Notes: generated by a model not told the origin, from the sequence alone. 43,496 bases of DNA from an uncultured archaeon (GCA_964342815.1 CAYFHS010000016.1:42515-86010), one strand, 5' to 3'; shown: positions 9,201 to 39,169, counted from the first letter of the stretch. A program made the numbers and translations.

Positions 9201-10128
9201 TCATGCTATCGTTGGTGTGCTTCGTCAGGTCATTTGTTATCCATTCCATTTGTTGGTCTGTGAAACTTTCCACCTTGTTATCGGGATGAGGAATGGAAGG
9301 GATGGGAGACCTTTGCCAATGGCCGCAATTCAGACCAATGAAATGATGTTTCCCATAATTGAAAGTGTAATCCAGCAGGGGATTAATGGTGTTGCTGTAA
9401 ATATTTATACCTTCCGCATTTCGATAACTGTATTCGTGATTGCCGGTGATAACATATACCGGGACTCTGAAACCCTTGCAGATATTGATGAACATATCCG
9501 CCTGATCCTGATCCGGGGTGCCTGAACCGGTAGGGTCCGCATCATAACTGTCCCCGGTTATGAACACCAGTTCAGGATTGATAAGATTAATTTCACGAAC
9601 GGCTGCCTGAAAATTTGCCACTGAATTCTTATCATCTACGTGTATATCAGTTATATGCACGAATTTGAAAGGATTCTTGTATTCTTTGATCACATTGACA
9701 GCATTCTGCTGATACTGTTCCTGGGCGTCTACAATCACACTGATATCATAGAAATCGACAAGGGTATCATTTGCTAATCTCAGGGACAATATCCACCGGT
9801 CGTCTTCCTTTATTAATTTAGAAATCTTCAGAGAATACGTTTCCCCTTCCCCGATGATTGTAATGTTGAAGTAGGAACTGTTCTCGATGCCTTCACCCCT
9901 GATCCACACCTCGAAACTTTCACCGGGAGTTCTAATGGCAGGAAGGGCCAATCTTGGTCTTTCAAGCACCAGTGATGAAGCCCCTCTCGTGGCCTGAAAT
10001 GTTTCCTCATTCAATTCAACCGCATCCACTGGGACAGTGAAGAGCACCATAGGCATTAATAATATTAGAAGGATTAAAAATAACCTCAATTTCGATAATA
10101 TCCTCAAAATCTCACCTGCGTCGAACAA
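6283..10128 (-). CDS. Membrane-anchored extracellular calcineurin-like metallophosphoesterase with Ig-like stalk repeats and a basic cytoplasmic tail
   Basis: All five metallophosphoesterase motifs are present: TDIH, GDSYD, GNHE, MHAP, GHTH. Three roughly 110-aa D-x2-PP...W[DN]...GN-x-D repeats, a Big_5-like PRILDTVPEDSAENVP domain and a C-terminal TM. The true start may be the TTG at 10107, which follows an AGGTGA RBS. Confidence 0.88.
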   Translation of the reverse strand: MFDAGEILRILSKLRLFLILLILLMPMVLFTVPVDAVELNEETFQATRGASSLVLERPRLALPAIRTPGESFEVWIRGEGIENSSYFNITIIGEGETYSLKISKLIKEDDRWILSLRLANDTLVDFYDISVIVDAQEQYQQNAVNVIKEYKNPFKFVHITDIHVDDKNSVANFQAAVREINLINPELVFITGDSYDADPTGSGTPDQDQADMFINICKGFRVPVYVITGNHEYSYRNAEGINIYSNTINPLLDYTFNYGKHHFIGLNCGHWQRSPIPSIPHPDNKVESFTDQQMEWITNDLTKHTNDSMKLIFMHAPLKTNNGRDTPMWHVEDMENLMIENDVKAFIAGHTHRDEIIDVNDNVLEGDWQAPDYPLVIQTASGGSEDTVEECSYRVFKVDNDTFDYYTYDHDGDGVRNSVASTPMGRIKVEISKPNDGTRVSSEFTVTNDQYEDLEDGRVILKMATPPEGMNYCVNDGEVINVVDTLDGQNVHIQVSVSGISQKTFSVFQLDITAPDIIEVYSKSGNNISGVYERGNEVEIIVQEGNLETGLMGSISIRNDEDHPLIENAPLMDSGGGRYTYFWDTTNVPANKSYWLEAFLEDGAGNFDRTPEFDTAHNITIVDTIPPEINRVRSKMNGDDDNTYSIGSVIRIIVEEANDEMGLDGKVFITLSENQSLFNGTFPLDEEGDGNYHFKWDTAGLPYGKYLIETLLIDEWGNRDDGLWPSVDLVIHLIDDFPPVVASVGSLVEVDELVDDDAEYPLGGSVHFLVRESSDEESLSGELIISREDDRTTVAVLPLEGIPGKPGSYGAEWNSYGAEVGVFHVDSKLWDSSGNMDSDGAPEEPDHTFTLVDQDMPRILDTVPEDSAENVPISPKITLRFSEPIISDRLQIAVRIEDLYFNEIPFHVEWFEMNATAILVPDHVLSYHSTYVLILTDKIMDKAGNRIDGEKLIRFTTIPYQPKENVDGRYTMFPPQRKLLLESDDLTKFSIQLMSKEILELPVHYSWYLNGQELHNGPNASQYILNAANLSTENSYELEVRVTGESIEISDYWILQVRNDDDDDGEASQGNTYGSAALKWAYGAGIIVVCLGFFLIIFYLNIRRRRHNKMLEDELRFHISNVNEDKMDNGKQKGRNELNSYEKPLFLEKKAAQKNRLDGLYFLNDERKETRSEGKRKRTLKDRSKGLKRKRTSGKSKRKRKSLTLSGETPFVEILPPVSAWPSSNAGLPYQPRTHIETDIIDIEPLLKQDDEITVVSGENNNDSSENLRDIVEDFIRGIDK

Positions 10129-17456: not shown

Positions 17457-20400
17457 ATGGCCAGAAAGCTCTGTTTATTTATCGGTTTTATCATACTCAT
17501 CATACCCCTGATGACCATCATCCAAAATACCGACCTGGAACCAGTCACGATTCAAAATACGGATCATCCATCATCCTACCAAGCAGAAGGAACCCGTTCG
17601 AACTTTGCCGAACTTCCCGTCTGGGACGTCAATTTCAAATGGCGGTATCACCGGGTATCCTATGTCAAGCTTGATCCCGACGGTTACCTCAACCTTATAG
17701 ACGAGGCAGATTACCGCGTCAGCGCTATCGAGTACGTTACCTGTCATGACGGATACCAGGCTCTGGCTTACAACGTTACAATCGAGAACGGCATCGTCAA
17801 GGGTGACGGCCTGATGCAGATAGATACCGATGATCCTCCCGACGGGGAACCTGACCTGGATGTTTCCATCACAATAAATGAGGACGATTCATCAATCGCG
17901 GGTTTTCAGTGGTACAGGGTATCTGACCTCGCCATGCTTCAGGATTATCGTGACCTTCATATTGAGGTCGATGCGAGATACGGCATATTCAGTGGAACGG
18001 TGAAGATCGACGCAGAGAACTCCATGCAGGCATCTCCCGGGGAAGAAGATTACGACTTCCCGATATACACATATGACCAGTGGAGCTCGAATTTTTCTTA
18101 TTATAATTCGCTTTATTATAAAATGGACGTCCCGGATTGGCTGGGCAATTTCGGGGTGGAGGACGAGGAGAATTCATCTGAAAGCGACAGCGATGTAACA
18201 GCCGATTACTGGTGCAATTCCACCACTGCGCTGAATCACGATTACGGTTCTTTCAATGACTGTTATCTCGTGGACGCTTCATTTAAAGTGGATGACGGTA
18301 GTGGGCAGCAAATGTGGTATTATCATCCCGATTCCAAGAACTTTGCGAGGTGGAGAATGGAGAACATGAACCTCGGCGGTCTTGTGGTAAAGGAATCCAA
18401 TAACGACCTGATGAAGGACCATACTGAGGTCTGGGACGTATCAACAAGCGGTGTGACCGTAGGACCAGGGGACATGAGAATAATACACCCGGGAAGCCAA
18501 GTTCCGGTAAAATGCGATTTCTCCAGCGCTCAAATTCGGTTCGATGAAGATAATTCGGACCAGATATTTGCAACACAGGAAGTGGATGGAGAATTCATCG
18601 CCAACGTCACCGTACCAACCGTTAACGACAATACAATTGTAGACAGTTCGGTTGTGGAATCGCAGCAAGATGTGGGCTCGCACGGTCTTCTGGTGGAGAC
18701 GGATGGAACTTATATACCGAAGACCATCAGACTGCGGGAAGGGGACCTATCTGTAGAGGAATCGGACATCACCCTGTCGGTACCCGAAATAATGGCTGGA
18801 GAAACCGTCACCATTAGCGCAAAGGTGTTTAACCAAGTGGACACCTTTATGGGACTGGATATCAACGTTGGATTTTACATGGATTTCGGAACTCAGGACG
18901 AAATACTCCTTGGAACAACCACGCTGTTCGGAATGAATAACGGTCCTGGATTTTCACGTATTTTCAACATGGTATGGCGCGAGCCTATCCCCGGAGATCA
19001 TTCTATCACCGTAATTGTGGACAGCGACGACCAAATTGAGGAGAAGGACGAGGAGAACAACAACGTAACCCTCGGCCCATACTATATAAACACAAGACCC
19101 TCTGCGGAGCTAACAGTGAACAGTACAAAGGTACTGACCTATGAGGACATACTATTCGACGCAAGGGGCTCATCCGATCACGAAGGGGACCTCACCAGCT
19201 ACGCTTGGGATTTCGATGACGGTACTCTTAGTAGCGAGCGAACTGTCGTCCACAATTTCACCGATGACGGTATCTATAACGTAACACTCACGGTTGCAGA
19301 TTCGGATGATGTTGAGGACATGGTATGGACCGAGATCGTGGTTGAAAACCGAGATCCGGTCCTGATTTACTTGCTCGATTACGAAGGAAAGGAGGAAGGC
19401 GCCAATATCGGTGCCGGGGACGAGATCACCTTCTCGGCTTCGGGAAGTTACGATAAAGACGGTACCATAAAGACCTTTTACTGGGATTTCGGAGTGACGG
19501 GGGGTGATTCTTGGGACGAAGAGGCGGCGTATACTTACCAGAACAGGGATACATATACGGTCACGCTCACAATTACAGATAATGATAATGCAGAGACCAG
19601 TGCAAGTTTCGACGTTTCCGTAGCGAACAAGGTACCGGTAATAGATCTGAAAGTTGACAAAGTGACAGCCCTGACCCACACCGAGATAAATTTCGACGCC
19701 TCCGGGACCAAGGATCTCGATCCAACGGGACAAATAACATCTTTCGCCTGGGATTTCGGAGACGGAAGCAAGGGGACAGGACCAAAAGTTAGCCACCTGT
19801 TCATTGACGACGGCAGTTACAGTGTGAAGTTGACGGTTACGGATAACGAAGGAGGGACCGTCACCAATAGCATAATAATCGAAGTGACAAATCGACCCCC
19901 TGTTTTGAAATTATCACCTCCCTTTTCCGAGGATTCTAAAAATCAAATATCCCTTAAGAAGGGACTGAACATCGATCTGGCAAAATCCACCGATATTGAC
20001 GGGAGCGCACTAAGTTACTATTATGATCCCGGTGAAGGAGAGGGTACAGGGTGGGTCGGTGAATCTTCTTACAATTATCTATACTCGGCCAAGGGTACTT
20101 TCACCCTCACAGTCAAAGTAAAAGATGACGATGATGTTGTTGTGGAAAAGGATTATCTTATAGATGTAGTGGACAACAATCCCCCCTCATGCAGTATAAT
20201 ATTCTCCCCGATGAAACCGGAAGCAGGCCAGAAGGTCACCATCAAGGCAGTATATGAAGATCCGGAGGGGGACGAGATAATAAAATTCATGTGGAATTTC
20301 GGTGTAGACAGCCCCTTCAATGACCTTTGGCTTCCCAATTCTGAAAAGCAGATGACATACAAGGACCCCGGTACTTACACAGTAACGCTCTACGTTGAGG

Positions 20401-20711
20401 ATTCCACAGGACTAACCAGCCAGGAATATGCTGCAGAAATTACGATATTTGACGTGGGTAAGGGGGGTGGATCTGAGCAGGACAAAGAGGGTGAAAGCGG
20501 CGAACTACCGTGGCTATGGATAGCCGTGGGCGGAGGAGTATTTATCATTGTGGTGGTTTGTGTTCTGTTATTAAAAGGCGGGAAAGAATCGGAGGAAACG
20601 GACGAACCAGAGAAAACGCACGAATATGAGGATATGGACACATTAGTCACTCTGGATGAGGAGGAAGACGGATCCGCTGATGATGAAGATTCATTCGACG
20701 TTGAATGGTAA
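17457..20711 (+). CDS. Surface protein with a CARDB domain, five PKD repeats, C-terminal TM and acidic tail
   Basis: CARDB-like DLSV...VDSDDQIEEKDEENN. PKD signatures WDFDDG, WDFGVTG, WDFGDG, YDPGEG, WNFGVD. TM WLWIAVGGGVFIIVVVCVLLL. Confidence 0.88.
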   Translation: MARKLCLFIGFIILIIPLMTIIQNTDLEPVTIQNTDHPSSYQAEGTRSNFAELPVWDVNFKWRYHRVSYVKLDPDGYLNLIDEADYRVSAIEYVTCHDGYQALAYNVTIENGIVKGDGLMQIDTDDPPDGEPDLDVSITINEDDSSIAGFQWYRVSDLAMLQDYRDLHIEVDARYGIFSGTVKIDAENSMQASPGEEDYDFPIYTYDQWSSNFSYYNSLYYKMDVPDWLGNFGVEDEENSSESDSDVTADYWCNSTTALNHDYGSFNDCYLVDASFKVDDGSGQQMWYYHPDSKNFARWRMENMNLGGLVVKESNNDLMKDHTEVWDVSTSGVTVGPGDMRIIHPGSQVPVKCDFSSAQIRFDEDNSDQIFATQEVDGEFIANVTVPTVNDNTIVDSSVVESQQDVGSHGLLVETDGTYIPKTIRLREGDLSVEESDITLSVPEIMAGETVTISAKVFNQVDTFMGLDINVGFYMDFGTQDEILLGTTTLFGMNNGPGFSRIFNMVWREPIPGDHSITVIVDSDDQIEEKDEENNNVTLGPYYINTRPSAELTVNSTKVLTYEDILFDARGSSDHEGDLTSYAWDFDDGTLSSERTVVHNFTDDGIYNVTLTVADSDDVEDMVWTEIVVENRDPVLIYLLDYEGKEEGANIGAGDEITFSASGSYDKDGTIKTFYWDFGVTGGDSWDEEAAYTYQNRDTYTVTLTITDNDNAETSASFDVSVANKVPVIDLKVDKVTALTHTEINFDASGTKDLDPTGQITSFAWDFGDGSKGTGPKVSHLFIDDGSYSVKLTVTDNEGGTVTNSIIIEVTNRPPVLKLSPPFSEDSKNQISLKKGLNIDLAKSTDIDGSALSYYYDPGEGEGTGWVGESSYNYLYSAKGTFTLTVKVKDDDDVVVEKDYLIDVVDNNPPSCSIIFSPMKPEAGQKVTIKAVYEDPEGDEIIKFMWNFGVDSPFNDLWLPNSEKQMTYKDPGTYTVTLYVEDSTGLTSQEYAAEITIFDVGKGGGSEQDKEGESGELPWLWIAVGGGVFIIVVVCVLLLKGGKESEETDEPEKTHEYEDMDTLVTLDEEEDGSADDEDSFDVEW

Positions 20712-22211: not shown

Positions 22212-23273
22212 ATGAACATAGTAAAGAAATACACTTTTATTGTGATATGTATCTTGATCACCCAGGCAGTTTTTTTCACTGTTGGCGGGGCGAAAGGGGA
22301 TGGCGAAAGGACCCGCAAAGAGATAAACGTAACGTTTGTGACCAGTCACGGCACAATATCATTGGAACTCTACCCCGACGACGCACCCATTACGGTTGAG
22401 AATTTCATGAAATACTATAATGATAATTTTTATGAAGGACTCATATTCCACCGGGTCATCGAAGATTTCATGATCCAGGGAGGTGGCTTTTACCCGGATC
22501 TTAAACAGAAGACCGCTACTTATTCCGCAATCAAGAACGAGGCCGCCGTTTCCGGTCACAGGAACCTTCGGGGGACAATCGCCATGGCAAGGACAAGCGC
22601 TCCCGACTCCGCCACGTGTCAGTTTTTTATAAACCATGTTGACAATCCATCCCTAGATTGGGATAATCCAACAGGTGATGGATCCGGTTACTGTGTCTTT
22701 GGTAGGGTTACATTGGGACTGGATGTAGTTGACTCAATCGCGGTTGTTGATACCAACACCGAGAACGGGATGGGGGATGTACCGGTGGAAGACATATTAA
22801 TCACTGAGACAGGAGGGGATGGGAACAGCGGTGATGACGACGATGATGAAGATGACGATACGAATGGAGGTAATAGCGGCGGTTACAATCCGGATAAAAA
22901 ACCTTCAAACCCGAGAAATGTGCAAATTGAGGCTGGTGACGGCTACATTGAGATAAGCTGGAGCAAACCACTGGATAATGGGGCACCGCCCATCTACCAA
23001 TACAAAATATATCGTGCTACCAGTTCCGGAAACCTAAGACAATTGGCTATGGTGGACGCAAGCGAAAAATCATACAAGGACAACACTGTGGAGAACGACC
23101 AGATATATTATTATTACGTCATAGCGGTTAATGCTTACGCGGAAAGCGATCCCTCCTTCGAGGTATCCGAAACTCCGCAGAAAGGAGTTGAAAAATCACC
23201 TGGTTTCAAGGTTATCTCATTACTGGGGATCACAGTGATAGTGGCAGTCTGGTCGATTCGGAAGAAAAAGTGA
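22212..23273 (+). CDS. Secreted cyclophilin-type peptidyl-prolyl isomerase with a fibronectin type III domain and PGF-CTERM sorting signal
   Basis: FHRVIEDFMIQGGG, RGTIAMART, QFFINH and YCVFGRV motifs. An acidic/Gly linker, an FnIII domain (PSNPRNV...ISWSKP...YYYYVIAVN) and the C-terminus SPGF-hydrophobic-RKKK. Confidence 0.92.
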   Translation: MNIVKKYTFIVICILITQAVFFTVGGAKGDGERTRKEINVTFVTSHGTISLELYPDDAPITVENFMKYYNDNFYEGLIFHRVIEDFMIQGGGFYPDLKQKTATYSAIKNEAAVSGHRNLRGTIAMARTSAPDSATCQFFINHVDNPSLDWDNPTGDGSGYCVFGRVTLGLDVVDSIAVVDTNTENGMGDVPVEDILITETGGDGNSGDDDDDEDDDTNGGNSGGYNPDKKPSNPRNVQIEAGDGYIEISWSKPLDNGAPPIYQYKIYRATSSGNLRQLAMVDASEKSYKDNTVENDQIYYYYVIAVNAYAESDPSFEVSETPQKGVEKSPGFKVISLLGITVIVAVWSIRKKK

Positions 23274-23381: not shown

Positions 23382-26300
23382 TCACTCCTGGTAACGGTCC
23401 CAATCTACATCGTCCTCGTTTATTGGAAGGTCCTTTTCAGACACCGAAAGACCGTTATCATCCTTCCTTTTCCGAACGAACATTGCAATAATCGTAGCCA
23501 ATAGGAACACTGCTACGAGGAGAATTATTACAATTACAAGAATTGAAACACCGTCATTGGGTCCTTCGCCGCTTCCCACCTGTTTCTGCTCGGCCATGGG
23601 CGCAAAAATGGTGAAATGGCTTACATTGGCATAAACGATGTTATTGTCCGTATCCACCTGAGTTTTCTCGCATTTCTGCCACCCGTTGCTGTCCTCATCC
23701 CAGTAGTAGAGTAAAAGGTCTGCTTCGTTCACGTTCTCCGGTATTTCGTCATCATCGTAGTGTATTTCCACGTAGAACCAGTCCAGGTCCCCATCGATCT
23801 CGGCTATTATGAAATTGCCAATTATCATCCGACCATCCGGTACATCACTCTTCGCCTTCTCGGGAATGTCAGAATCGTCCACCCATTTCCAGATTACCTT
23901 TCCATCGCCCTTGAACTTGCATACCACTTTCTGACCTTGACGGTTCTTGAACTCGGCCTCAACAACCTCGTCCTTGTTCACTGGGATGTTTGCCTCCTGG
24001 TCCTCGTCGAAATCCTCGTACTTGATTTTGCCAGTTTCGTCGATCTCGTCTGGAACCGCCTGATCACTACCCGGTGGGTTGAAGTAATTGACCTCTCCAA
24101 CAAAATTTGGATCATGGAAAACACGATGGGCAGCGGGATATAGATATCCTCCTTTCATCATAAATCCGAAAAATATTCCTTTCGTCATATTGCGGTGGTG
24201 AACCCAATCAACAAGTTCCACGACCTTTTCAACGCCGTGAACCTGGAAGTATGCAGGGGCCGTATAGGATTCGTTGCTATCGGCATCAGACCATATCTCA
24301 ACATCGGATACCCAGGTCATCCGTCCAACTCTCTGCCAGTTGTCTGCGAAATCGATGGTGTTGCGTTCGATGGCCTTGGCCTCTATAATATCCCTAAGCT
24401 TTAATTTCCCGAACATCTCCTCTTTGTGAAGGCGGTCCAGCAGAGCGGCGACATCGTCTTTGGTGACGTTGAAGCCTTCGCCGTGCCTGTAAGCCCATTC
24501 CAGTATATATCGGACCTCTTCCTCACCAATGTGTCCCTGCTTAATGGCCCAAACAAGCATTTTTACGAATTTTTCCTTGCTCAGAAATCCCTCTCCAAGA
24601 GCCTTTATGAGGATATGCACCATCACCTTTTCGGAGAGTTCTCCATCCCGGCGAACCAATACCAGTATCAGAATAATATCCTCTCCCGAAAGAGAACCTT
24701 CCTGGTGCAATCTGCTTAGGAGGTGATGTATCATATCCGCGTCAAATAACCGGAACTTATGTCCTATTTTGAATATAAAGGCAATGTCCTCCAGCTTCAG
24801 CTCACCTCCGTCGAGAGCCATTTTAATTAGCTTCACAAGGTCTTCTTTCTGCAACTCTCCCGCCTTGATCGCATGTACTATTATTTCTGCTAGGTCCTCA
24901 CGACTAAGCTCACCTGCTGCATACGCCTTGAAGAGTATCCATTTGACGTCCTCCAATGTTAGATTACCCCATTTGTACGACATCATAAGAAGCCAGCGGA
25001 GATCTTCGCGGTTAAGCTCACCCGACTTGTAAGCTTCTATTATTAGTAATTTCAGATCGTCACGGCTAAGCTCACCTTTCTTGTATGCGTTGATCAAGAT
25101 CCACCGGAGATCTTCTCGTTTCAATTCACCTTTCATGTGGGCTTGTATAAGAAGCCAGCGGAGGTCCTCACGGCTAAGCTCGCCCACCTTGTAGGATATG
25201 AAAAGTATCCATCGGAGGTCCTCACGGCTAAGCTCACCCTCTTCATAAGCTCTTATTATGAGTCGCCTTAGATCCTCTCGGGTCAGGTTATTCCGAATGT
25301 ATGCCGTGATAATGATCCATTTCAGGTCCGTTCGATTGATCTCACCCTTCATGAAACCGTGGAAAAGGAGTTTTCTCAATTCCTCGAGACCAAATTCACC
25401 ATCTTCCCATGCTGAGACAAGAATCCAACGGAGGGTTACGCGGCTTATAAGACCTTTCCGGTATAAGCTGAAGAGAATCCAGTTCAGATGCTCATGACGA
25501 AGCTCGTGTCTTGTGTACATCCCCACAATAAGCCACTTCAGCTCTAACACAGATAATTTGGAAGCATTACCGAGCTCCATGATAAGATGAAGTATGTCCA
25601 CTTGGCTGAGTCGGCCGTTTCGATAGGCTTCCACCAGAAGGCCGCGGAGAACGCTTATGTTGATATCGTTTACGGAAAAGGAGCGGTTAATGTACCACAT
25701 TAGATCCTGTAGTTTCACGTCCTTTTCCAGAAGCATCCACACCAGATCGTCAAATTTCAGGTCATGGAGTTTGTAGCTGCGGAACAGGATCCAACGTAAC
25801 TCCTCACGGGTGGTTAGATCGTTCTCAAGACTGCTGAATAAAATCCAGCGGATCTCTTCACGGTTAAGTTGGTTCCGGTGATGAGAATCCACTAATATCC
25901 ATCTCAGATCATCGAGATTCATTTGACCGCCGGCATAGGCCAGCAATATAAGAAATTTAAGTTTCATAAGGTCGATTTCCTCGTTGGCATATGCGCTGAG
26001 AACGAACCACTTGAACTGTACCAGGGGCTCCAGTAGGGTTTCATTCCCAAGTAGTGCGGTGGTAAAGTTGTAAAGATCATCAAAGGTTAAATTTCCTCTT
26101 GCATGCGCCGTGAACACTGCTCGTCTAACATCATCTCTTGCCAGCACACGATTGATGTAGATGGTCATGATATTTTGGATCCAATTCTGGTTGTTATCCT
26201 GGCGGTTCGTTATGTTTTCCAATACCATATGGTACTCGGGCGGGGTTCTCGTAATGCTCTGCACATCCGTATCGAGTAGGGCCCCATGGTCCTTCAGCGA

Positions 26301-29300
26301 CGTTAGCAGAAGGTTCACGTCATTCACTTTAATAAAACCGTAACGGAAAGAATCTCTAAGCAATATTTCGATCTCTTGTTCAGTCATCCAATCATGTTCA
26401 TGGGCTGCCAGTAGAGCTTCCTTTACCACATCCAAAGAAAAGTTACCCCTGGAGTAGGGCAATATTAGCAAGAAACGGAGATCTCGAAGGTCCATGCTCA
26501 AGGAATCCTTTTCACCAGGCTTTCGCGTTCCCGAGAATACACGTATTATTATGATCGAGACGTCCTCTTGGCTGAATACATCCTTCTCATACAGGTGGAG
26601 GACGAAAGCGAGGATATCTCGCCTTGTGAGACCCTTCATCTGAAATCCAATTGCGAGAAGGTGGCCGATATCAGCGTTGTCAAAGATATCTTCCAGGTAA
26701 CCGGCGGCGATCATCCCCATCCAATCCTCCTTGGTGATCAAGTCCACCCAGAAAGCGAAGAGCAGGAAGCGCATCATCTCGTCTCTATTCACGATTCCAT
26801 TTTCATGACACCGAAACACGATACGGAACCAATCCTCCTTGGAGATTATCCCCTTATGATATGCCAGCGCCAGAATGAATAGCCATTCCTCGGAGCGCAG
26901 TTTCTGCTGCTTAAAGGTAAGCCATAGAATATCCAGAAGCTCGGTCCTGTTGATAATACCGCTTAAGTGGGCGAAATTCAGAACCGCTACGAGATCTTCA
27001 TGGGACAGAACCTCCATGTTGAAGGCCGTGATGATCAATTTTGTCCAGTGATCCTGTTCAATAATCTTCTCTTTGTAGAGGAAAGCAAAGAAGGATATCA
27101 GATCCTCTCTCTCAAGACCGCCTTTTTCGTAAACTTCGAAAAAGACGTTTATTAAAAATTTTTCATCGATCAGATCATTTTTATGAATCCGAAGAACAAT
27201 GTAGACCCATTCCTCTTTCGTCAGTATCCCGTGGAAATACAGCAATGATAGTACGTAGATCACATCCTCGGGAGGTGCCATCTCGGAATGGAAGACCTTC
27301 TCTATTATCCCGATAAGCATCTCCTTGTCCAGCCTTCCCTGTTGATAAGCCGTAAGAATAATTTTAACCCATTCTTCCTTCATGATCCAACCCTTTTTGG
27401 TAAGATCGATGAGGATGTCCCTCCACTGGTCTCTGGAGAATTTTTCCTCAGCTCCCAATTCCATGATTATGTAAACGAGGTCTTCCTGTGTGAGAAAACC
27501 CATCTCCCGGGAGAATATTAGAATGTCTACGAACTCCTCCCGGTGCATGAATCCTTCCTGATAAGCTATAACCAGAAGACCAACGAGTTTTTCCTTGCTG
27601 ATGACCTGACCTTCAACCATCTCAGTGAGTATCCACATAAGTTCCTCACCGGCTATTATCTTGTGTTCCTTCATTTTGAAGAGAAGCCCAATGATATCCT
27701 TGTCCCCAACCGTACCTGACTTGTATAGGGAGAGAAAAACGTCCCTAAGATCGTACTTGGTTATTTCATGGTGTTTATAGGCGTCCAGCAGCACCTCAAA
27801 AAACTCACGTTGGGATATCTTTCCATTTTCAAGAGCCGAACCAAGCTCCCTGATATCCTTTCTTTCACCGGAATTTATCACCACAGGATCATCCTTCCCC
27901 TCCTCACCCTCAATTCTATGTTTCTTTTCGTTATCATCTGCATATTCAGCATGACCCCCACCCCTGAGCATATCAAGAAGCTCCCCTTTCAACCAGCTTG
28001 CGACGTAGGCGGAAATATGATTGCCCATTAGCGTATGGGTCTCAAGCATGAGCTTGGATTCCACGGATTCAGCTTCGTTTAAGGGAGGGGCTGTATCCCA
28101 ACCTATAATATCGTGGTCGAACTTGAAATCTGCTGTTATTGAGTGACCCTGGTACTTTTCATTACCCTTAAGCGTCGTTTTGATCCCTTCTTTGGTAACG
28201 TTGATATCATAGTACGGAATGTCCTCGATTGTAATATTCTCCACAGACACCTTGACATGGAAGGTGAACTCTACCTTTTCAAGAGCAATTCGGTTATTGA
28301 TCGGGCCCTCGTTCTTTTCATCTCCAATATAATTGTAAGGTAGGTCTTTCCGGCTAAGTCGGAACTGCCAAACTCTGTGCTTCTCGTCGGATTCGATCAA
28401 TGTCGGTCTGGAAAGCTCCCAGCTTCCAATCAGGTCAACCGCTTTGATTATTGGCTCGTGGGTCTCTTTCAATTCGGGTCTTTCCCGCGGCTCTTCAGGT
28501 TTCTCATTGGGATCACCCGGTTTCTCATTGGGGTCACCCGGTTTTTCGCTGCTATCTTTCTCATCTTCTTCTTGTCTGGTTCTATCTTCCCCGGACTTCT
28601 CCTCATCCTTGGCATCTGTGCCATCACCATTCTCATTCTCATTATCTGGTTTCTCGTCCCCGGATTTCATCTCATCGATCTTGTAGAAATCGAATGCGCT
28701 GTTGTCATTAATATCCCGGAACTCGAAAATATAATCCAAACGCTGAGCAAAGACGGTCTGAACAGGTATCCCCGTCCCCTTTTCATTTCGTTCCTTGCCG
28801 TCATCATCCCGCTTGTTCACATCGGCTACACCGAGGTATCTCGTGTACATGGATACAAGGGTCACGGAATTGGGATTCTCCTCAGTACCATATACCACGG
28901 CAAACCAGGAATCCTTTCCCACGCGGATTGCAACAAAATCACCTCCACCAAAATCTTCTGTTGAACCCACTTCCAGATTGGCATCTCCGATCCCGGGAGC
29001 TTTGTCCTGCGGGGGGTGTTTTTCATAATCGGGTTTCTCATCACCAGCGGAGTCCTCCCCAGGTTTCCCGGAATCGTCTGATTCATCCTCATTCGAAATA
29101 TCTTCCCCATCCGGTTTTTCATCCTCATCCGGTTTTTCATCCTCACCGGGCTTTTCCTCGGATGAAACTTCTTCTTCCTTCCCCTCCGCAGTGGGAGTCT
29201 CGGAATTGTCCGATTCTTTCTCACCTTCTATATTATCATCGTTTCCATCTTCATTGAAAGCGGCTACGACACTAGCTCCGATACCGCTGATCAAAAGCAG

Positions 29301-29348
29301 CATCGCCATTGAAATAGCAAGCAATTGTCCCATTTTCACGGTTTTCAT
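23382..29348 (-). CDS. Giant surface protein with about 60 tandem 18-aa helical repeats, a juxtamembrane ZU5/PGF-pre-PGF-like domain with an HFT motif, TM and acidic tail
   Basis: 1988-aa ORF with GAGGTGA RBS and a signal peptide. The repeat array spans aa about 509-1643. TM VSILVIVIILLVAVFLLATIIAMFVRKRK. Confidence 0.9.
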   Translation of the reverse strand: MKTVKMGQLLAISMAMLLLISGIGASVVAAFNEDGNDDNIEGEKESDNSETPTAEGKEEEVSSEEKPGEDEKPDEDEKPDGEDISNEDESDDSGKPGEDSAGDEKPDYEKHPPQDKAPGIGDANLEVGSTEDFGGGDFVAIRVGKDSWFAVVYGTEENPNSVTLVSMYTRYLGVADVNKRDDDGKERNEKGTGIPVQTVFAQRLDYIFEFRDINDNSAFDFYKIDEMKSGDEKPDNENENGDGTDAKDEEKSGEDRTRQEEDEKDSSEKPGDPNEKPGDPNEKPEEPRERPELKETHEPIIKAVDLIGSWELSRPTLIESDEKHRVWQFRLSRKDLPYNYIGDEKNEGPINNRIALEKVEFTFHVKVSVENITIEDIPYYDINVTKEGIKTTLKGNEKYQGHSITADFKFDHDIIGWDTAPPLNEAESVESKLMLETHTLMGNHISAYVASWLKGELLDMLRGGGHAEYADDNEKKHRIEGEEGKDDPVVINSGERKDIRELGSALENGKISQREFFEVLLDAYKHHEITKYDLRDVFLSLYKSGTVGDKDIIGLLFKMKEHKIIAGEELMWILTEMVEGQVISKEKLVGLLVIAYQEGFMHREEFVDILIFSREMGFLTQEDLVYIIMELGAEEKFSRDQWRDILIDLTKKGWIMKEEWVKIILTAYQQGRLDKEMLIGIIEKVFHSEMAPPEDVIYVLSLLYFHGILTKEEWVYIVLRIHKNDLIDEKFLINVFFEVYEKGGLEREDLISFFAFLYKEKIIEQDHWTKLIITAFNMEVLSHEDLVAVLNFAHLSGIINRTELLDILWLTFKQQKLRSEEWLFILALAYHKGIISKEDWFRIVFRCHENGIVNRDEMMRFLLFAFWVDLITKEDWMGMIAAGYLEDIFDNADIGHLLAIGFQMKGLTRRDILAFVLHLYEKDVFSQEDVSIIIIRVFSGTRKPGEKDSLSMDLRDLRFLLILPYSRGNFSLDVVKEALLAAHEHDWMTEQEIEILLRDSFRYGFIKVNDVNLLLTSLKDHGALLDTDVQSITRTPPEYHMVLENITNRQDNNQNWIQNIMTIYINRVLARDDVRRAVFTAHARGNLTFDDLYNFTTALLGNETLLEPLVQFKWFVLSAYANEEIDLMKLKFLILLAYAGGQMNLDDLRWILVDSHHRNQLNREEIRWILFSSLENDLTTREELRWILFRSYKLHDLKFDDLVWMLLEKDVKLQDLMWYINRSFSVNDINISVLRGLLVEAYRNGRLSQVDILHLIMELGNASKLSVLELKWLIVGMYTRHELRHEHLNWILFSLYRKGLISRVTLRWILVSAWEDGEFGLEELRKLLFHGFMKGEINRTDLKWIIITAYIRNNLTREDLRRLIIRAYEEGELSREDLRWILFISYKVGELSREDLRWLLIQAHMKGELKREDLRWILINAYKKGELSRDDLKLLIIEAYKSGELNREDLRWLLMMSYKWGNLTLEDVKWILFKAYAAGELSREDLAEIIVHAIKAGELQKEDLVKLIKMALDGGELKLEDIAFIFKIGHKFRLFDADMIHHLLSRLHQEGSLSGEDIILILVLVRRDGELSEKVMVHILIKALGEGFLSKEKFVKMLVWAIKQGHIGEEEVRYILEWAYRHGEGFNVTKDDVAALLDRLHKEEMFGKLKLRDIIEAKAIERNTIDFADNWQRVGRMTWVSDVEIWSDADSNESYTAPAYFQVHGVEKVVELVDWVHHRNMTKGIFFGFMMKGGYLYPAAHRVFHDPNFVGEVNYFNPPGSDQAVPDEIDETGKIKYEDFDEDQEANIPVNKDEVVEAEFKNRQGQKVVCKFKGDGKVIWKWVDDSDIPEKAKSDVPDGRMIIGNFIIAEIDGDLDWFYVEIHYDDDEIPENVNEADLLLYYWDEDSNGWQKCEKTQVDTDNNIVYANVSHFTIFAPMAEQKQVGSGEGPNDGVSILVIVIILLVAVFLLATIIAMFVRKRKDDNGLSVSEKDLPINEDDVDWDRYQE
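24420..27824 (-). repeat. Array of about 60 18-aa (54-bp) repeats, consensus G-x-[LI]-[ST]-x-[ED]-[ED]-[LW]-x-x-[IL]-[LI]-x-x-[AS]-[YH]-x-x
   Basis: Examples: GELSREDLRWILFISYKV, GELSREDLRWLLIQAHMK, GELKREDLRWILINAYKK. The DNA motif GGAGGTCCTCACGGCTAAGCTC occurs at 25160 and 25214, 54 bp apart. Confidence 0.92.
28498..28545 (-). repeat. Short 21-bp tandem repeat encoding EKPGDPN
   Basis: EKPGDPNEKPGDPNEKP. Related EKP repeats with an 18-bp unit (DEDEKP) lie at about 29109-29150. Confidence 0.85.
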
Positions 29349-29494: not shown

Positions 29495-30379
29495 CTAATT
29501 TATTGCTGTACCATCATCCAGCTCTTTGCCGCATTTGGGACATTCTTTGACTCTGTTCACCGGTACTTTTTGTTTGCAAAAATCACATAAATACTCCTTC
29601 TTACATGATATGCACCTCGTTGCGCCCAGGGGCATTGGCTCGAGACACTTCTCACACCTGAACATTCTCCCGCAGAGTCGACAGCTCATGGAATAAGCGC
29701 TTATTACTTTCCCGCATTTTGGACAATTCAAATCGAAATCAGCAATACAAACAGGGCATCGGCCGCTACCACCGCATTCTTTGCATTTCCTTCTGAAAAG
29801 ACCCCTACGACCTTTTCCGGAACAATTCCTGCATCTGAGCGTATTACGGCAAGATATACAATATATCCCGTATTCCTTCCGATTGCGTTTGACTTCGTCG
29901 TTCTTTCCCCGCTCCATCTCGATAAATTCTTCCTCTGTTATCTCTTCGACCTTTTCTTTTTCAGGATCATATGATGCCGTCCCGTCGAAATCGATATTAT
30001 GCACTCCGTCTACCCCCACAACCCTTGCGTCGTCCATTGTAAAGAATCCGGTCTCCTTTCCACGATCCACCTCGGTTACGACCTTTGACATATCCCATTG
30101 GTCAATATCATCCTTCAACTGGAATCCAATGATCTCTGCATCCACAAGATCCTGAATGGTGGAATCGATTTCAGTTTCCACCACGAGGTGTAACCCGTCC
30201 GCCCAGTTTGTCTCCCTTTTATTCTCATTGTGCTCCCCGGGACTAAGTTCTGTGTTTTCATCCTTCACTTTTTTTTCGGATTTTTTCTTATGTGGAAGGA
30301 CACGTTTCGGTTCCCTCTTGTGACTTGAGCGGGTATTGGGATCATTATTCATTTTTCCTTTTACTTTCTTCTCAGGCAT
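29495..30379 (-). CDS. Multi-zinc-finger protein (ten CxxC pairs; DnaJ-like CxxCxGxG plus double zinc ribbons)
   Basis: CISC, CRNCSGKG, CKECGGSG, CPVC, CPKC, CRLC, CEKC, CISC, CDFC, CPKC, after a charged N-terminal half. Confidence 0.8.
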   Translation of the reverse strand: MPEKKVKGKMNNDPNTRSSHKREPKRVLPHKKKSEKKVKDENTELSPGEHNENKRETNWADGLHLVVETEIDSTIQDLVDAEIIGFQLKDDIDQWDMSKVVTEVDRGKETGFFTMDDARVVGVDGVHNIDFDGTASYDPEKEKVEEITEEEFIEMERGKNDEVKRNRKEYGIYCISCRNTLRCRNCSGKGRRGLFRRKCKECGGSGRCPVCIADFDLNCPKCGKVISAYSMSCRLCGRMFRCEKCLEPMPLGATRCISCKKEYLCDFCKQKVPVNRVKECPKCGKELDDGTAIN

Positions 30380-34903: not shown

Positions 34904-37900
34904 CTAATCGTAAAACTCGTCCTCTTCCTCGTCATCATAGTCTTTGTCGTCATATCCCTCGTCATCATAGTCTTTGTCATCGTAATCTTCGTCATCATAA
35001 TCGTCGTAGCCTTCGTCGTCATATTCGTCGTTATAGTCGTCGTATTCATCATCATAACCAAGGTCATCATCCTTCTTGGGAGTTTCCTCTTCGTCCCATC
35101 CGTCATCATCCTCTTCCTCATCCCACCCCTCATCATCAGACTGTTTTTCCGCATCTTCATCCCAATCGTCATCATCCCCGTCCGACAGAGAGTCCCCACT
35201 CTCAGCTTCGTCCTGAATTGGCATCGGCTCTTCTTTCTTCTTCTGTCCCACTATCACGAAGATAATAACAACGATTACCACAACCGCCACCACAGCGATT
35301 ATTATCCATACCAATAATGAGCTTGACTCCTCCTCGGGTGCCGCACCCTTGGTGGCAGGTGCAGTCCATCCACCCAGATCGTCCGGTGAAACGGTCTCTT
35401 CCATCAGCAAGTCGATGGTACCTTCCGCATCATCGTAATCCGTGTGAGTGAATTTGACCGTGACAGGTTGTCCAGCCCATTCCTCGGGTATGGAAAAGAC
35501 CGCAATACCGTCCGCGCTTGTGGCCTTGGTGTCACTGTATGAGCCAACAGATATTGCTATGGAAGCATCCTTAATTATATTTCCATCATTATCCCTGAAC
35601 GGGCCCAATGTAAGCGTTAAAAACTTCGGCTGCACGATTATCTTGGTTGGTGCAATCCATCCAGTGAGATTGGCCGGGTTGATGACCATGGTCCTAAGGT
35701 TAGTAAGGGTTCCCGAAGCATCATTGTAATCCGCATGAGAGAAAAGAACCGTGACGTTCAATCCAGCCCATGTGGCAGGAATCGAGAAAGTCACGTTTCC
35801 TCCTGTATCGGTGGTCTCTGTGATATTATAAACATCGGCACCCACGATGATCTTTATTGTAGCCTCAGAAAGTATTGTACCATCGGTATCCTTGAATTGT
35901 CCCAGTGTAAGTTCGATTGCAGGTGGGGGCGGAATATTAACCGTGCTGGAAAATGTTATTATTTTTACCAACGTGTCTAGATTCTGTGAGGTCCCGGTTA
36001 TAGTAACGTTTTCAACAGCCCCATCCGTAGCATTGGCAGGTGCAGTCACGTTCACTATCACCGTATCGGTTCCACCTTGAGCCAAGGAAAGAGAGCCGCT
36101 TGAAAGTGCTACCGTCCAATACATAGGTTTTGAGGTGACCGCAAGGTCGATAATGTCCGGTCCATCAGCCAGATTATTCACAATCAGAGAGTAACTGACG
36201 GTTTTCCCCGGTTCGATCACATTGGTGTTATCAGGACTGCTCAGAGCAAAGTTGTAGGTGACCTTGGATATAACCAGATTCACAGGTATGTATTTTGTAC
36301 CCAATGAACTCTCGACTTTGATCCGGCCAGTGTAAAGGTGATGTGCCTGCGATGCGGAGATAGTCACGTTTACGGTGACAGTCTTTATTGCTCCGGCGGC
36401 AAGATCGAAGGAACTTGCGTCAATGGATAGGTTGCTCCCAGGAATAGTCGCCAAACCGTTTTGTGACACCAGCTCATTAGCGGTTATCACTATACCATCC
36501 ACCGGACCAATGCCCGAAGTTTCCGTAAATGTCAGCTCCGTGGTGATCACTTCTCCCGGTTCCGCATCTCCAACAACAGCCGCAGGAGATATACTTAATG
36601 TAGGAATTTCTTCCGGTTCCTGTGAGAATATGGTAAGGGGACCTTCCATGGCAGTTACCACAACATCCGAAGAATGTACCTCCCCGGGAGTGATCTCACC
36701 AGAATAAGCTGCGGAACTGGCTTCCTCCTCCCCAATATATCCTTCGATCTCAAGCTCGTAACTACCGGTTGAAATACCTACAAGCTCGATTGTATACTTA
36801 CCGACCTCTGCAAGAGGTAGAATTATCTGTTCGTCACCAATACCCTCCTCTACAATATCCTGCAAGGAAGACGAATATGAATATGTATGTCCCTTGTAGC
36901 TTAAGGTCGCTCCCGGTATACCTACTTCGATCTTATCGGTATCAAGGACGAGGCCTATATGTCGCCCCTTATCATCATATATGTGTAGAGTCGCATTCGA
37001 ATGTAGAGTGAAAACCGCGGATAGGTTCGCACCTTGCGGTAGGGTCTGTGTTTCCAGGCATAATATGGCATATGCCGTGGCCAGTACAGGCCCGTTGCTG
37101 GACTCCTCCCAGTAACTTTCGTTGAGTTTCTTCATAGCCGTCAGGTTCTCAGTCATATTGTTGGTCCAGTTGTGCGCTCCGTCATTAACATATGTACCAT
37201 TCACAACGTTGATATATTCCATGCCTACCATGGTGAGTGCCTTAGCAAGTGTGATATAATAGTACATCAACCACTGATCGCCCTGGTGCGCATTCTCTTT
37301 CCAGGTATAGTTTCTCTCGACCCACTGAATGGCCGCCTGAACTCTGGGATCGACATCATTCAACCCGCATAGCATCAATGACCAGAGACCCGCAGCGCTC
37401 ATACTGCCATACGAAGGGTCCATTGGACCAGGCCCACCGGGACCCCTTTTGGGTCCACCCATTTCCATCGGCATATAGGTAAATCCTCCGGAAATATTGC
37501 TCTGGCACTTTTCCAGGAAAACCAGGGCTCTCGCCCACATTCCGTCATTCTTGGAAAGGTTACCCCATGCATCGAGACCCATCAATGCCCACTGCGTGTT
37601 CGAAAGATCCGCCCAGTTGGAATCATTGTGACCGTAACCCCATCCTCCGTACATCGGATTCGAATCATTGGTCCCTCCCCAAAGGTTGTTCTCGTCCAAT
37701 TGTGTCTCGTTCAACCAATCACCCATGGCATTGATACCAACGTTGTAATCGGGATTCATTGTAGCCTTTAAGGCTAGAATAGCCATTGAAGCACTGTATG
37801 TGGCATCCTGGTCGATGGGTGGATTGTTCTCATCCCAGTTCAAATTGATTTCATCGATCAAATAGGAGATTGCAGCGTCCACAGTGGCGTTTCCCTCGAT

Positions 37901-39169
37901 TATATTATTGTTCAGGTATGCCAGCAAGCAGAGGGAAGTTATTCCCGGACTGCCATCCCATGAACCATCACCGTGCTGTTGATGTGTAAGCCATGCAAGC
38001 CCGTCGGTTATAAGATCACCCACCACAATAGCCGGATGTGATGCCGGATTGGTGGCATTTGTTCCAGCTTGTTCTTCATCATAGTTGCTGAATCCGTCGC
38101 CATCGATATCCTCATCAAAGAGATCCGGTATCAAATCGCCATCCATGTCGGGTGGGACATCCATCTCATCCAGTGGATTGGAACCAGCAGCGATCTCAAC
38201 GTCATTTGGATATCCATCATCGTCGGCATCGTCGTCATATGCATCGGGCATTCCGTCATTATCGTAATCGGGGGGATAGTCAGTAGCATTTGTCTTGTTG
38301 GTTCCCAGATCGTCCTCCCAGATATCGGCGAATCCGTCGCCATCCGTATCAAGGTAGGATAGGTCCACCCATAATTCCTGCATTCCATATCCCATATTAT
38401 CATTGATATCGAACAACATCATGGTAAAATTGAAACCATAACCCCATCCGTACTTTTCTTGGAGACTGAAGTCCTTCAAGTCTCCGCTGTTGAGTGGAAA
38501 TGACAACTCAATTATGTAATCACCTGTAGCGTTCTCTACCTTATTGCCCGTGAAGTTGAGATTCAAATTGCCGTTCTGCTGTACATCCCCGGACATATTG
38601 AAACCGGGACCGTCATCTTTTCGATCGCCATATAGATCCCCATCGAGAAAGGTGTCCATCCCGGTGAAGTTCAATGCACCCGACTCGTTCCAGTAAGCTA
38701 TGAAGTAGAGGGCCTGGTCGCCGGAACCAAAATGGCCGTCATCCGTATCGAAGGCAAAAATGAACATGTCCCACATGGGGCCATCCCCATCTCCATTTCT
38801 GGTGTTCCCAGGGGGAAGGGTCATGTTCTTTCCCCTCCAGGCGAAATAGAGTTCGGTCTGGTTGTTGTTCATGGCAAACTCGGTCTCAACCATATTGCCT
38901 CCGTGCAACTCATGCATCATAAAATGAGATTGGTTCCAATCCGACAGGTTACCATCGATAAGGGGGGAGGCCGCGGTATAATTCGATATTCGATGCTCCC
39001 ACCAATTACCTTCTTCTTTCATGGTACCTAAAGGTATATCATTATCGTTTATTGCCGCCAATGCAGCAGGAATATATGATAAGATCATTCCCAGGCAGAC
39101 AAATGCTGCTGTATACTGTAATCTTTTTTGTCGGTTCATATTTTTCACCTTTTTTGGTTTGTTCCACAT
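34904..39169 (-). CDS. Surface protein: sugar-binding/DOMON-like N-domain, TSP3-like Ca-binding repeats, prenyltransferase/squalene-cyclase-like alpha/alpha barrel, Ig-like domains, TM, Asp/Glu/Tyr tail
   Basis: PLIDGNLSDW; DTDGDG, DYDNDG and DIDGDG repeats; QW-like GLAWLTHQQHGDGSW; GGWGY; DLSNTQWAL; FLEKCQ...GGFTY; TM LLVWIIIAVVAVVVIVVIIFVIV. Confidence 0.85.
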   Translation of the reverse strand: MWNKPKKVKNMNRQKRLQYTAAFVCLGMILSYIPAALAAINDNDIPLGTMKEEGNWWEHRISNYTAASPLIDGNLSDWNQSHFMMHELHGGNMVETEFAMNNNQTELYFAWRGKNMTLPPGNTRNGDGDGPMWDMFIFAFDTDDGHFGSGDQALYFIAYWNESGALNFTGMDTFLDGDLYGDRKDDGPGFNMSGDVQQNGNLNLNFTGNKVENATGDYIIELSFPLNSGDLKDFSLQEKYGWGYGFNFTMMLFDINDNMGYGMQELWVDLSYLDTDGDGFADIWEDDLGTNKTNATDYPPDYDNDGMPDAYDDDADDDGYPNDVEIAAGSNPLDEMDVPPDMDGDLIPDLFDEDIDGDGFSNYDEEQAGTNATNPASHPAIVVGDLITDGLAWLTHQQHGDGSWDGSPGITSLCLLAYLNNNIIEGNATVDAAISYLIDEINLNWDENNPPIDQDATYSASMAILALKATMNPDYNVGINAMGDWLNETQLDENNLWGGTNDSNPMYGGWGYGHNDSNWADLSNTQWALMGLDAWGNLSKNDGMWARALVFLEKCQSNISGGFTYMPMEMGGPKRGPGGPGPMDPSYGSMSAAGLWSLMLCGLNDVDPRVQAAIQWVERNYTWKENAHQGDQWLMYYYITLAKALTMVGMEYINVVNGTYVNDGAHNWTNNMTENLTAMKKLNESYWEESSNGPVLATAYAILCLETQTLPQGANLSAVFTLHSNATLHIYDDKGRHIGLVLDTDKIEVGIPGATLSYKGHTYSYSSSLQDIVEEGIGDEQIILPLAEVGKYTIELVGISTGSYELEIEGYIGEEEASSAAYSGEITPGEVHSSDVVVTAMEGPLTIFSQEPEEIPTLSISPAAVVGDAEPGEVITTELTFTETSGIGPVDGIVITANELVSQNGLATIPGSNLSIDASSFDLAAGAIKTVTVNVTISASQAHHLYTGRIKVESSLGTKYIPVNLVISKVTYNFALSSPDNTNVIEPGKTVSYSLIVNNLADGPDIIDLAVTSKPMYWTVALSSGSLSLAQGGTDTVIVNVTAPANATDGAVENVTITGTSQNLDTLVKIITFSSTVNIPPPPAIELTLGQFKDTDGTILSEATIKIIVGADVYNITETTDTGGNVTFSIPATWAGLNVTVLFSHADYNDASGTLTNLRTMVINPANLTGWIAPTKIIVQPKFLTLTLGPFRDNDGNIIKDASIAISVGSYSDTKATSADGIAVFSIPEEWAGQPVTVKFTHTDYDDAEGTIDLLMEETVSPDDLGGWTAPATKGAAPEEESSSLLVWIIIAVVAVVVIVVIIFVIVGQKKKEEPMPIQDEAESGDSLSDGDDDDWDEDAEKQSDDEGWDEEEDDDGWDEEETPKKDDDLGYDDEYDDYNDEYDDEGYDDYDDEDYDDKDYDDEGYDDKDYDDEEEDEFYD
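34907..35060 (-). repeat. YDDxx pentapeptide-type acidic repeat at the C-terminus
   Basis: ...YDDEGYDDYDDEDYDDKDYDDEGYDDKDYDDEEEDEFYD. An exact 22-bp duplication lies at 34927-34948 and 34957-34978. Confidence 0.85.

Follow-up and report, generated by a model that had tools for sequence, protein, structure and literature searches.

A 43,496-nucleotide stretch of DNA from an uncultured marine archaeon of the Thermoplasmatota (GCA_964342815.1, CAYFHS010000016.1:42515-86010; hereafter, the window) carries on its minus strand a gene for a giant protein of 1988 residues, P0001 (23382..29348), more than half of which is an array of 18-residue helical repeats. The gene stands in the list of open reading frames (ORFs), and its translation aligns over the full length with orthologues of 2011, 2003 and 1982 residues. 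An earlier note on this DNA had described the array as a candidate new solenoid family in an extracellular protein. Our analysis suggests that the array was inserted into a loop of a membrane-anchored beta domain, to which both of its ends return, and that it probably forms a HEAT-like alpha-solenoid. All parts of P0001 described below lie on the minus strand.

The order of features in P0001 supports a type I membrane glycoprotein. The signal peptide (residues 1-30, 29259..29348) is hydrophobic from residue 10 to 28 (Kyte-Doolittle 2.27) and its sequence is kept in the orthologues; the translation continues with an acidic low-complexity linker (residues 31-119, 28992..29258), whose DNA contains 18-nucleotide and 21-nucleotide repeats. 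Near the other end, a transmembrane (TM) anchor (residues 1933-1958, 23475..23552) reaches a hydropathy of 3.61 over residues 1936-1954 and is followed by RKRKDD. Residues 10-28 and 1936-1954 are the only TM-like segments of P0001, and the highest 19-residue window of the array has a value of 1.19. The short cytoplasmic tail (residues 1959-1988, 23385..23474) has four residues that are invariant in the orthologues, D1982, W1983, R1985 and Y1986, and ends in the motif D-W-x-R-Y. The signal peptide, the C-terminal TM segment with RKRKDD and a conserved enrichment of sequons place the array outside the cell, as the earlier note had proposed, and array-less relatives of P0001 are likewise type I membrane proteins.

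The array occupies nucleotides 24420..27824, which are exactly residues 509-1643, or 1135 residues. Its BLOSUM62 autocorrelation is +0.74 at lag 18, +0.65 at lag 36, +0.60 at lag 54 and +0.46 at lag 72, and all other lags remain at a background of about -1.0. Since lag 36 does not rise above lag 18, the basic period is 18. Units of types A and B do not alternate in the giant. Placing the units with an iterated profile and dynamic-programming tiling gave 57 in-phase units and about 5 degenerate ones (at residues 689-706, 986-1003, 1022-1066 and 1195-1208), that is, around 62-63 helices, in agreement with the 60 or so hydrophobic helical repeats reported in the earlier note. The remaining interruptions, at 941-949, 1103-1104 and 1623-1625, are small. 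In the tiling and the unit listing, arm 1 (residues 509-940, 26529..27824) consists of 24 in-phase units without an indel. It is followed by a module (residues 941-1066, 26151..26528) composed of a 9-residue insert, four weaker units and a 45-residue polar segment (1022-1066). This module, which is conserved in the orthologues, is a non-helical break and possible hinge that splits the array into the 24 perfectly phased units and about 32 others. The latter form arm 2 (residues 1067-1643, 24420..26150), which includes a consensus-like core at 1317-1514. Within 1022-1066, all four orthologues agree at D1026, T1033, P1037, Y1039, N1045, N1059 and I1060.

From the make-up of its columns, the unit consensus is G1-E2-[LI]3-[ST]4-[RK]5-E6-[DE]7-L8-[RK]9-W10-[IL]11-[LI]12-h13-x14-A15-[YHF]16-K17-x18, with G1 present in 29 of 50 units and E6 in 30 of 50. 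The glycine C-cap, the hydrophobic residue and the S/T-x-x-E box noticed earlier are all found in it. Under the rules of helix capping, S/T4 is the N-cap and D/E7 is N3, the two together forming a capping box, while L3 and L8 make a hydrophobic staple and G1 is the C' residue. Positions L8, I11, L12, A15 and Y16 form a heptad-like core stripe. Most of the consensus can thus be read, with the help of the model described below, as generic signals to stop and start a helix. The residues I, L, V, F, M, W, Y and A make up 49% of the array and charged residues 29%, and its grand average of hydropathy (GRAVY) is -0.04, compared with -0.97 and -0.58 in the flanking regions; the longest stretch free of charged residues has 15 residues. 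Tryptophan, tyrosine and histidine, in which the helices had been called rich, account for 2.8, 3.1 and 3.3% of the array against 1.8, 2.9 and 2.0% of the rest of the protein, an enrichment that is real but modest.

In arm 1, tryptophan recurs at unit position 8 in every third unit (those starting at 653, 707, 761, 815 and 869), and these sites are kept at the same units in an orthologue of 28% identity. The corresponding three-unit super-period is weak (z 2.0 at lag 3, 0.6 at lag 6 and 1.1 at lag 9), and we take it only as a hint. At the DNA level the array has diverged, and Tandem Repeats Finder detects only 3.4 copies of a 54-nucleotide unit, at 25054-25238. This segment, with 71% matches and located in the consensus-like core, is the sole part of the array that is detectable as a tandem repeat in DNA. 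So few recognisable copies suggest that the array is old and diverged.

The giant gene was found in all four genomes (three genera) of its family and in none of the 37 other genomes searched in the same class and phylum; a scan for relatives of the single protein returned only two close orthologues. The close relatives come from a Thermoplasmatota metagenome-assembled genome (MAG) from the eastern tropical North Pacific and from an uncultured marine archaeon. The four orthologues align from end to end (1988, 2011, 2003 and 1982 residues), and their arrays have 1135, 1135, 1136 and 1151 residues even though identity falls to 28%, with no whole-unit gain or loss among them. The core at 1317-1514 is the best-conserved stretch, being 43% identical to P0002 compared with 25-28% elsewhere in the array. 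When the units are compared with those of the orthologue from another genus, 54 of the 57 find their best match at the same position. Such positional orthologues have an identity of 0.60 in that comparison, where other pairs have 0.21; with the most distant orthologue the values are 0.28 and 0.18. This positional orthology, together with the constant length, indicates that the array is ancient, has not undergone homogenisation as a whole and is fixed in length, and the conservation of length suggests that a defined dimension matters.

The earlier note had counted about a dozen N-x-S/T sequons in the array; there are 13, compared with 2.9 +/- 1.6 in shuffled sequences, none of which reached 13 in 2000 shuffles. 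Most of them are in the turn, at positions 2 and 4 of the unit. Each of the four orthologous arrays has 13-14 sequons where 1.6-4.2 would be expected, and all 13 sites are conserved across the three closer orthologues.

For the fold of the array, AlphaFold2 was given residues 1299-1532 (24753..25454), which contain 13 units, and an alignment that combined array segments of the orthologues and of a short protein family discussed below with segments from other parts of P0001. The model has a predicted local distance difference test score (pLDDT) of 92 and a predicted template-modelling score (pTM) of 0.84, and consists of thirteen 13-residue helices separated by 5-residue turns, in a register (H5-17, H23-35 and so on) that gives one helix per unit. 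With Foldseek, the best matches in the PDB are de novo designed helical repeats (E 2.4e-4, TM-score 0.44). Among 48,161 chains compared with VIA-align, the best was again one of these designs (8cwy, Z 8.9), followed by the W2 HEAT domain of eIF2B-epsilon (1paq, Z 8.4, root-mean-square deviation 3.4 over 113 residues) and by domains of the MIF4G, TOG, CRM1 and huntingtin types (Z 6-8). A shape search of the ESM Atlas with the model gave TM-scores of 0.37 or less, and a feature search there yielded no usable match. The one-helix-per-repeat alpha-solenoid that had been inferred from the sequence is therefore what the model predicts, with matches only to HEAT-like and designed proteins.

As in HEAT and ARM solenoids and in designed repeats (8cwy, and DHR4, 5cwb), short antiparallel helices follow one another in an elongated superhelix in the predicted structure (Z 6-8.9), and we take the array to be a HEAT-like alpha-solenoid in class, without a specific relative. 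Several differences are nevertheless clear. A HEAT or ARM repeat comprises two or three different helices over 34-47 residues, whereas the period of the giant is 18 and its unit is a single helix, so that both helices of a pair are homologous. The array is also extracellular, probably glycosylated and inserted in a loop of a beta domain, and the TM-scores are 0.44 or lower.

Searches for sequence relatives agree with the view that the array belongs to no catalogued repeat family. With Pfam and NCBIfam run on the whole of P0001 and on its sub-segments, the array fell in no significant family; the Pfam models for HEAT, ARM, TPR and PPR matched neither P0001 nor array segments, and the array profile found nothing significant among the PDB sequences, the best being a PPR protein at E 0.015. 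The literature on 18-residue repeats, SHOCT and DUF7229 gave nothing on the repeat of P0001. A resemblance to SHOCT had been pointed out, and it has some substance. SHOCT (PF09851) is a domain of about 30 residues with two amphipathic helices and conserved glycine and glutamate residues, usually present in a single copy that in 89% of cases is no more than 50 residues away from the end of the protein (C-terminus; Eberhardt et al. 2013, PMC3581485). SHOCT, DUF1707 and DUF7229 share with the array unit the pattern helix, G-x-[LI]-[ST]-x-[ED]-[ED]-[LF], helix, and the consensus and the helix-turn-helix model of the array both have a two-helix unit with glycine and glutamate at the turn. For the SHOCT-like DUF1707 (PF08044) and for DUF7229 (PF23875), summed scores pass the Pfam cut-off in 12 of the 16 array segments each, with best values, both in the short family, of 41 and 46 bits. 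The summed DUF1707 scores are 29-41 bits against a cut-off of 27.6, and in every case no single stretch is significant by itself. With P0001 as a whole, neither SHOCT nor DUF1707 matched at E up to 1, and PF09851 was never listed. The same segments score likewise against EF-hand, Sigma70_r1_1, Glycos_trans_3N and many other families, and because so many unrelated families score alike, the likeness reflects a generic capping motif. In addition, SHOCT is usually single and C-terminal, whereas P0001 has about 63 tandem internal copies at 509-1643 of 1988 residues. The resemblance thus holds for the motif and not for membership.

The nearest relatives came from an exhaustive phmmer search of 1.84 billion cluster representatives, which gave 18 matches at E 0.001 or better, 12 of them below 1e-10. 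They include the orthologue P0002/P0020 (1982/1986 residues, 28-29% identity, a single alignment across the whole array), a fragment of 83% identity (P0004) and a short archaeal family (P0003, P0005-P0011; locus L011:8001-10337). Members of this family have 600-930 residues, a signal peptide and 7-14 of the 18-residue units found in P0001, arranged as an N-terminal array, a linker and a long helical domain; their units are 42-54% identical to residues 1299-1532 of P0001. The signal peptide suggests that the unit is extracellular there too. The proteins come from other archaea, with F420 genes and CetZ in their contig context; P0005, for instance, is NOZ76257.1 from a MAG labelled 'Euryarchaeota archaeon', and P0007 adjoins a MarR-type regulator on a contig where F420 genes and CetZ also occur. 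In contrast to the giant, they have neither the beta-domain host nor a TM anchor, and they show a clear super-period of 36 residues, with units most alike at lags 2 and 4 (z up to 3.9) and less so at odd lags. Such an A/B alternation fits a two-layer solenoid and would be expected of repeats made of two helices. The proposal of a new solenoid family thus stands insofar as the unit matches no curated family, but the unit is also present in a second family of archaeal proteins, which are shorter. Other phmmer matches (P0013-P0019: a fish protein, a Parachlamydia NACHT-HEAT protein, Sel1-like proteins and eukaryotic K/R-rich repeats) were judged spurious or at the level of the motif; the Parachlamydia HEAT/NACHT match, at E 2e-7, aligns only with many gaps.

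The segments on either side of the array belong to one domain. When the class was searched with the N flank (residues 120-508) and the C flank (1644-1925), both hit the same array-less ORFs of about 500-650 residues in most families. For instance, the matches on contig G000:C7, at 104218-104499, 103555-104112 and 103264-103500, adjoin one another and correspond to P0001 residues 123-220, 297-474 and 1658-1749. On this contig, which belongs to the same genome, lies the paralogue P0028 (locus L024:2603-4192, minus strand), a protein of 530 residues with a signal peptide, an ectodomain, a C-terminal TM segment and RKRRRKKD. BLASTP aligns its residues 78-378 with 136-473 of P0001 (31% identity, E 1e-28) and 397-476 with 1657-1749 (31%, E 6e-13), so that P0028 has 18 residues where P0001 has 1,183. 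The host domain of P0001 is accordingly present in three parts. Part 1 (residues 120-224, 28677..28991) is matched by array-less proteins of the class and by P0028 in BLASTP. An acidic disordered insert, which P0028 does not have in the alignment (residues 225-296, 28461..28676), separates it from part 2 (residues 297-473, 27930..28460), which lies within the first alignment. Part 3 (residues 1657-1749, 24102..24380) corresponds to the second alignment and to the array-less ORFs across the class. Between them and the array are a linker on the N side (residues 474-508, 27825..27929), running from the last host-homologous residue, 473, to the first unit, and one on the C side (residues 1644-1656, 24381..24419), from the last unit to the first host-homologous residue.

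P0028 has 63 homologues (P0029-P0091) of 299-558 residues, mostly 485-558, all of them unnamed and one from a Methanomassiliicoccales MAG; in most of the class's families that were searched, the ectodomain is present free of an array, in a type I membrane protein of about 500 residues. The family had no Pfam match and no significant sequence-profile match in the PDB. No longer members with other insertions were found, although the search was word-based and is weak evidence on this point. A model of P0028, built with AlphaFold2 from an alignment with 49 homologues (pLDDT 76.8, pTM 0.75), has an all-beta ectodomain of long strands followed by a TM helix. Its top VIA-align matches are the aldose 1-epimerase 3ty1 (Z 14.3) and the luminal domain of GLMP (8r8q_B, 14.1), followed by 3mwx (13.6) and the P1 domain of YidC (3blc, 12.4); domain 5 of beta-galactosidase and the C-domains of polysaccharide lyases are also among the top matches. 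Galactose-mutarotase-like supersandwiches dominate the top ranks, where 222-249 residues are aligned and 229-249 in the case of 3ty1, GLMP and 3mwx, and the model superposes on them as one large beta-sandwich. The fold is alike, but sequence identity is only 3-10%. GLMP and YidC P1 are non-catalytic and, like the host domain, membrane-attached.

Single target domains align from about residue 32-48 of the P0028 model to 479-483, across the insertion point. The insertion site itself (P0028 379-396) is the least confident stretch of the ectodomain, with pLDDT 52-69, as expected of a surface hairpin in such a model. Homology and the model together show residues 474-1656 of P0001 to be an insertion into what would be a surface hairpin loop of a galactose-mutarotase-like ectodomain. 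The giant has further acquired two acidic disordered segments and the membrane-proximal beta domain 1750-1925. None of the matched galactose-mutarotase-like domains is known to us to have a helical insertion of 1,100 residues, nor do we know of another insertion of more than 1,100 residues of the repeat into a supersandwich loop.

In a maximum-likelihood tree of the host parts, rooted at the midpoint, those of the four giants form one clade (Shimodaira-Hasegawa-like approximate likelihood-ratio test (SH-aLRT) support 99), in which the G002 giant stands on a long branch. This clade adjoins an array-less clade from four families (support 96) and lies inside the wider array-less family. The simplest reading would be that the gene was duplicated once and then received a single insertion, no later than in the ancestor of the giant's family.

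From these observations, a shape for the ectodomain can be proposed. The roughly 63 one-helix units are predicted to stack antiparallel into a HEAT-like two-layer alpha-solenoid, both ends of which return to the same membrane-anchored domain. Only one linker is clearly non-helical, and it has about 22 residues (474-495); about 31 helix pairs would amount to a contour of roughly 30 nm. With both ends in one domain, so short a linker and such a contour, the solenoid would have to curve or fold back, and it probably takes the shape of an arch, of a closed ring or of a pair of arms, with 24 and about 32 helices, that are hinged at 941-1066. That the array closes on itself, as a ring or as a two-arm clamp held shut by the supersandwich, is a tentative proposal that we would not expect to be the correct one; if it is, the surface would carry a fixed-size glycosylated cage or arch, a new envelope architecture, and one of the largest known loop insertions between folds, made from a minimal one-helix unit. 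As to function, a structural role is favoured because the consensus holds only capping and core residues, and the array may be a fixed-geometry, N-glycosylated scaffold or spacer on the cell surface that presents unit-specific surfaces. We therefore consider, with moderate confidence, that the protein carries a loop-inserted HEAT-like solenoid, bent back on its host domain, and that this most likely serves as a glycosylated structural scaffold or spacer; the array is unlikely to be an adhesin stalk of variable length, to be embedded in the membrane or to bind lipids.

Several points weigh against this interpretation. The two-layer arrangement depends on matches of Z 6-9, values that are ordinary for helical repeats, and AlphaFold2 is prone to high confidence on idealised helical repeats. 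The model of the host domain is of medium confidence (pLDDT 76.8), and a match in fold shows no function. Midpoint rooting leaves the loss of an ancestral array formally possible, and the choice between arch, ring and two arms is drawn from linker lengths. Finally, the neighbours of the gene are mostly housekeeping-like and offer no partner gene or functional lead, and the contigs from RNA libraries mentioned below are no proof of transcription.

The main rival to a structural scaffold is a platform for ligands or partners, in which the solenoid would be a protein-binding or glycan-binding surface, like HEAT, ARM and TPR arrays, and would act together with a lectin-like host domain, for instance by adhering to particles, polysaccharides or other cells. 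We regard this as possible while leaning against it. The host fold is typical of carbohydrate-active proteins, adhesin-like domains (Kelch, LamG and PKD) occur in other giants of the window, W10 is present in many units, and the W8 sites keep their places even in distant orthologues. Furthermore, conservation at the variable positions is higher between positional orthologues than in the between-unit background (0.54 against 0.11 for the other genus, and 0.19 against 0.09 at 28% identity). This conservation, however, is about equal to the overall identity and so singles out no functional surface; moreover, no binding residues are conserved across units, whose consensus is explained by capping and core positions, and no partner gene is linked. 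These data do not separate a binding platform from a structural scaffold.

The remaining proposals fare worse. The earlier note had suggested a rod, a spring, a sheath subunit or a surface for lipids or other hydrophobes. A free rod or stalk, stiff enough to raise a distal head from the membrane, would suit a long, regular helical repeat of conserved length in a membrane-anchored ectoprotein, but the flanks on either side of the array form one beta-supersandwich, and N-terminal to the host domain there is only the acidic disordered linker, which leaves no distal head. Flexible linkers of about 22 residues or fewer would also be too short for a straight solenoid of at least 30 nm. We thus consider this proposal, and that of a sheath subunit, improbable, given that both ends of the array are in the loop of one domain. 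Alpha-solenoids such as HEAT and ankyrin arrays are elastic, and this, with the invariant D-W-x-R-Y at the end of the tail, would be in keeping with a spring or mechanosensor that stores force or passes it to the host domain and the TM anchor; but there is no signalling domain and the tail has only 30 residues, and we hold it to be very unlikely. Least credible of all, to the point that we would set it aside, is an array that binds lipids or other hydrophobes or is embedded in the membrane. The proportion of hydrophobic residues and the GRAVY value, higher than in the flanks, gave some reason to think of it. Against it, the best 19-residue window of the array (1.19) is far from the 3.61 of the true TM segment and no TM-like segment is present, 29% of the residues are charged, the 15-residue limit on charge-free stretches is accompanied by helices of only 13 residues, the conserved enrichment of sequons implies solvent-exposed loops, and the hydrophobic residues fall where the core of a two-layer solenoid would need them.

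The class of fold is a known one, that of alpha-solenoids, while the one-helix unit of 18 residues matched no curated family in Pfam, NCBIfam or the PDB sequences. A natural repeat whose consensus is almost entirely the grammar of helix capping is near the constructs of protein designers, and the unit could be a natural template for scaffolds that are extendable, secretable and glycosylatable. The array-less paralogues in the same genomes make this extreme domain insertion a natural before-and-after pair for studying the origin of insertions and their folding. Both the repeat and the host family of about 500 residues, with its 63 homologues and no Pfam entry, merit database families. P0001 also extends the inventory of giant surface proteins in uncultured marine Thermoplasmatota, whose envelopes are poorly known.

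Between the host domain and the TM anchor lies the membrane-proximal beta domain (residues 1750-1925, 23574..24101), which is common to many giant ORFs of the class. It resembles PGF-pre-PGF, but the NCBIfam match to TIGR04213 is weak (E 0.098, 12.6 bits against a cut-off of 28) and does not amount to membership; the C-terminus of P0001 likewise has no PGF-CTERM motif in its translation, only a plain TM segment and the 30-residue tail. Within this domain, a juxtamembrane motif, N-V-x-H-F-T-I-F-A-P-M (window 23601-23650, residues ~1900-1918), is invariant in all four orthologues. Residues 1750-1988, comprising the beta domain, TM segment and tail, have no match among the other giant proteins of the window, none of which has this C-terminal domain.

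The gene order around the giant gene is aminotransferase, KsgA, flavoprotein, a cysteine-rich zinc-ribbon protein, the giant gene and a membrane-anchored cyclophilin-fn3 protein. Three genera share this order, apart from one additional ORF in one of the three. The zinc-ribbon gene (29495-30379, minus strand), just upstream of the giant gene, encodes 294 residues with a basic N-terminus and a C-terminal half rich in CxxC pairs (a double zinc ribbon); it is syntenic in the three genera and 57% identical in another genus. On the other side, and convergent with the giant gene, 22212-23273 (plus strand) encodes a cyclophilin-type prolyl isomerase with fn3, an N-terminal hydrophobic segment and a C-terminal TM segment, whose position is also kept in the three genera and which could be an extracellular folding helper. 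Short metatranscriptome contigs of at least 99% identity (three libraries, two samples, one study) match parts of the giant gene, including some inside the array, and give a hint of transcription. Four other giant secreted or surface proteins are encoded in the 43 kb, at 529-6261, 6283-10128, 17457-20711 and 34904-39169, with Kelch and LamG domains, metallophosphatase and Big_5 domains, five PKD domains and CARDB, and TSP3 and Ig-like domains, respectively.

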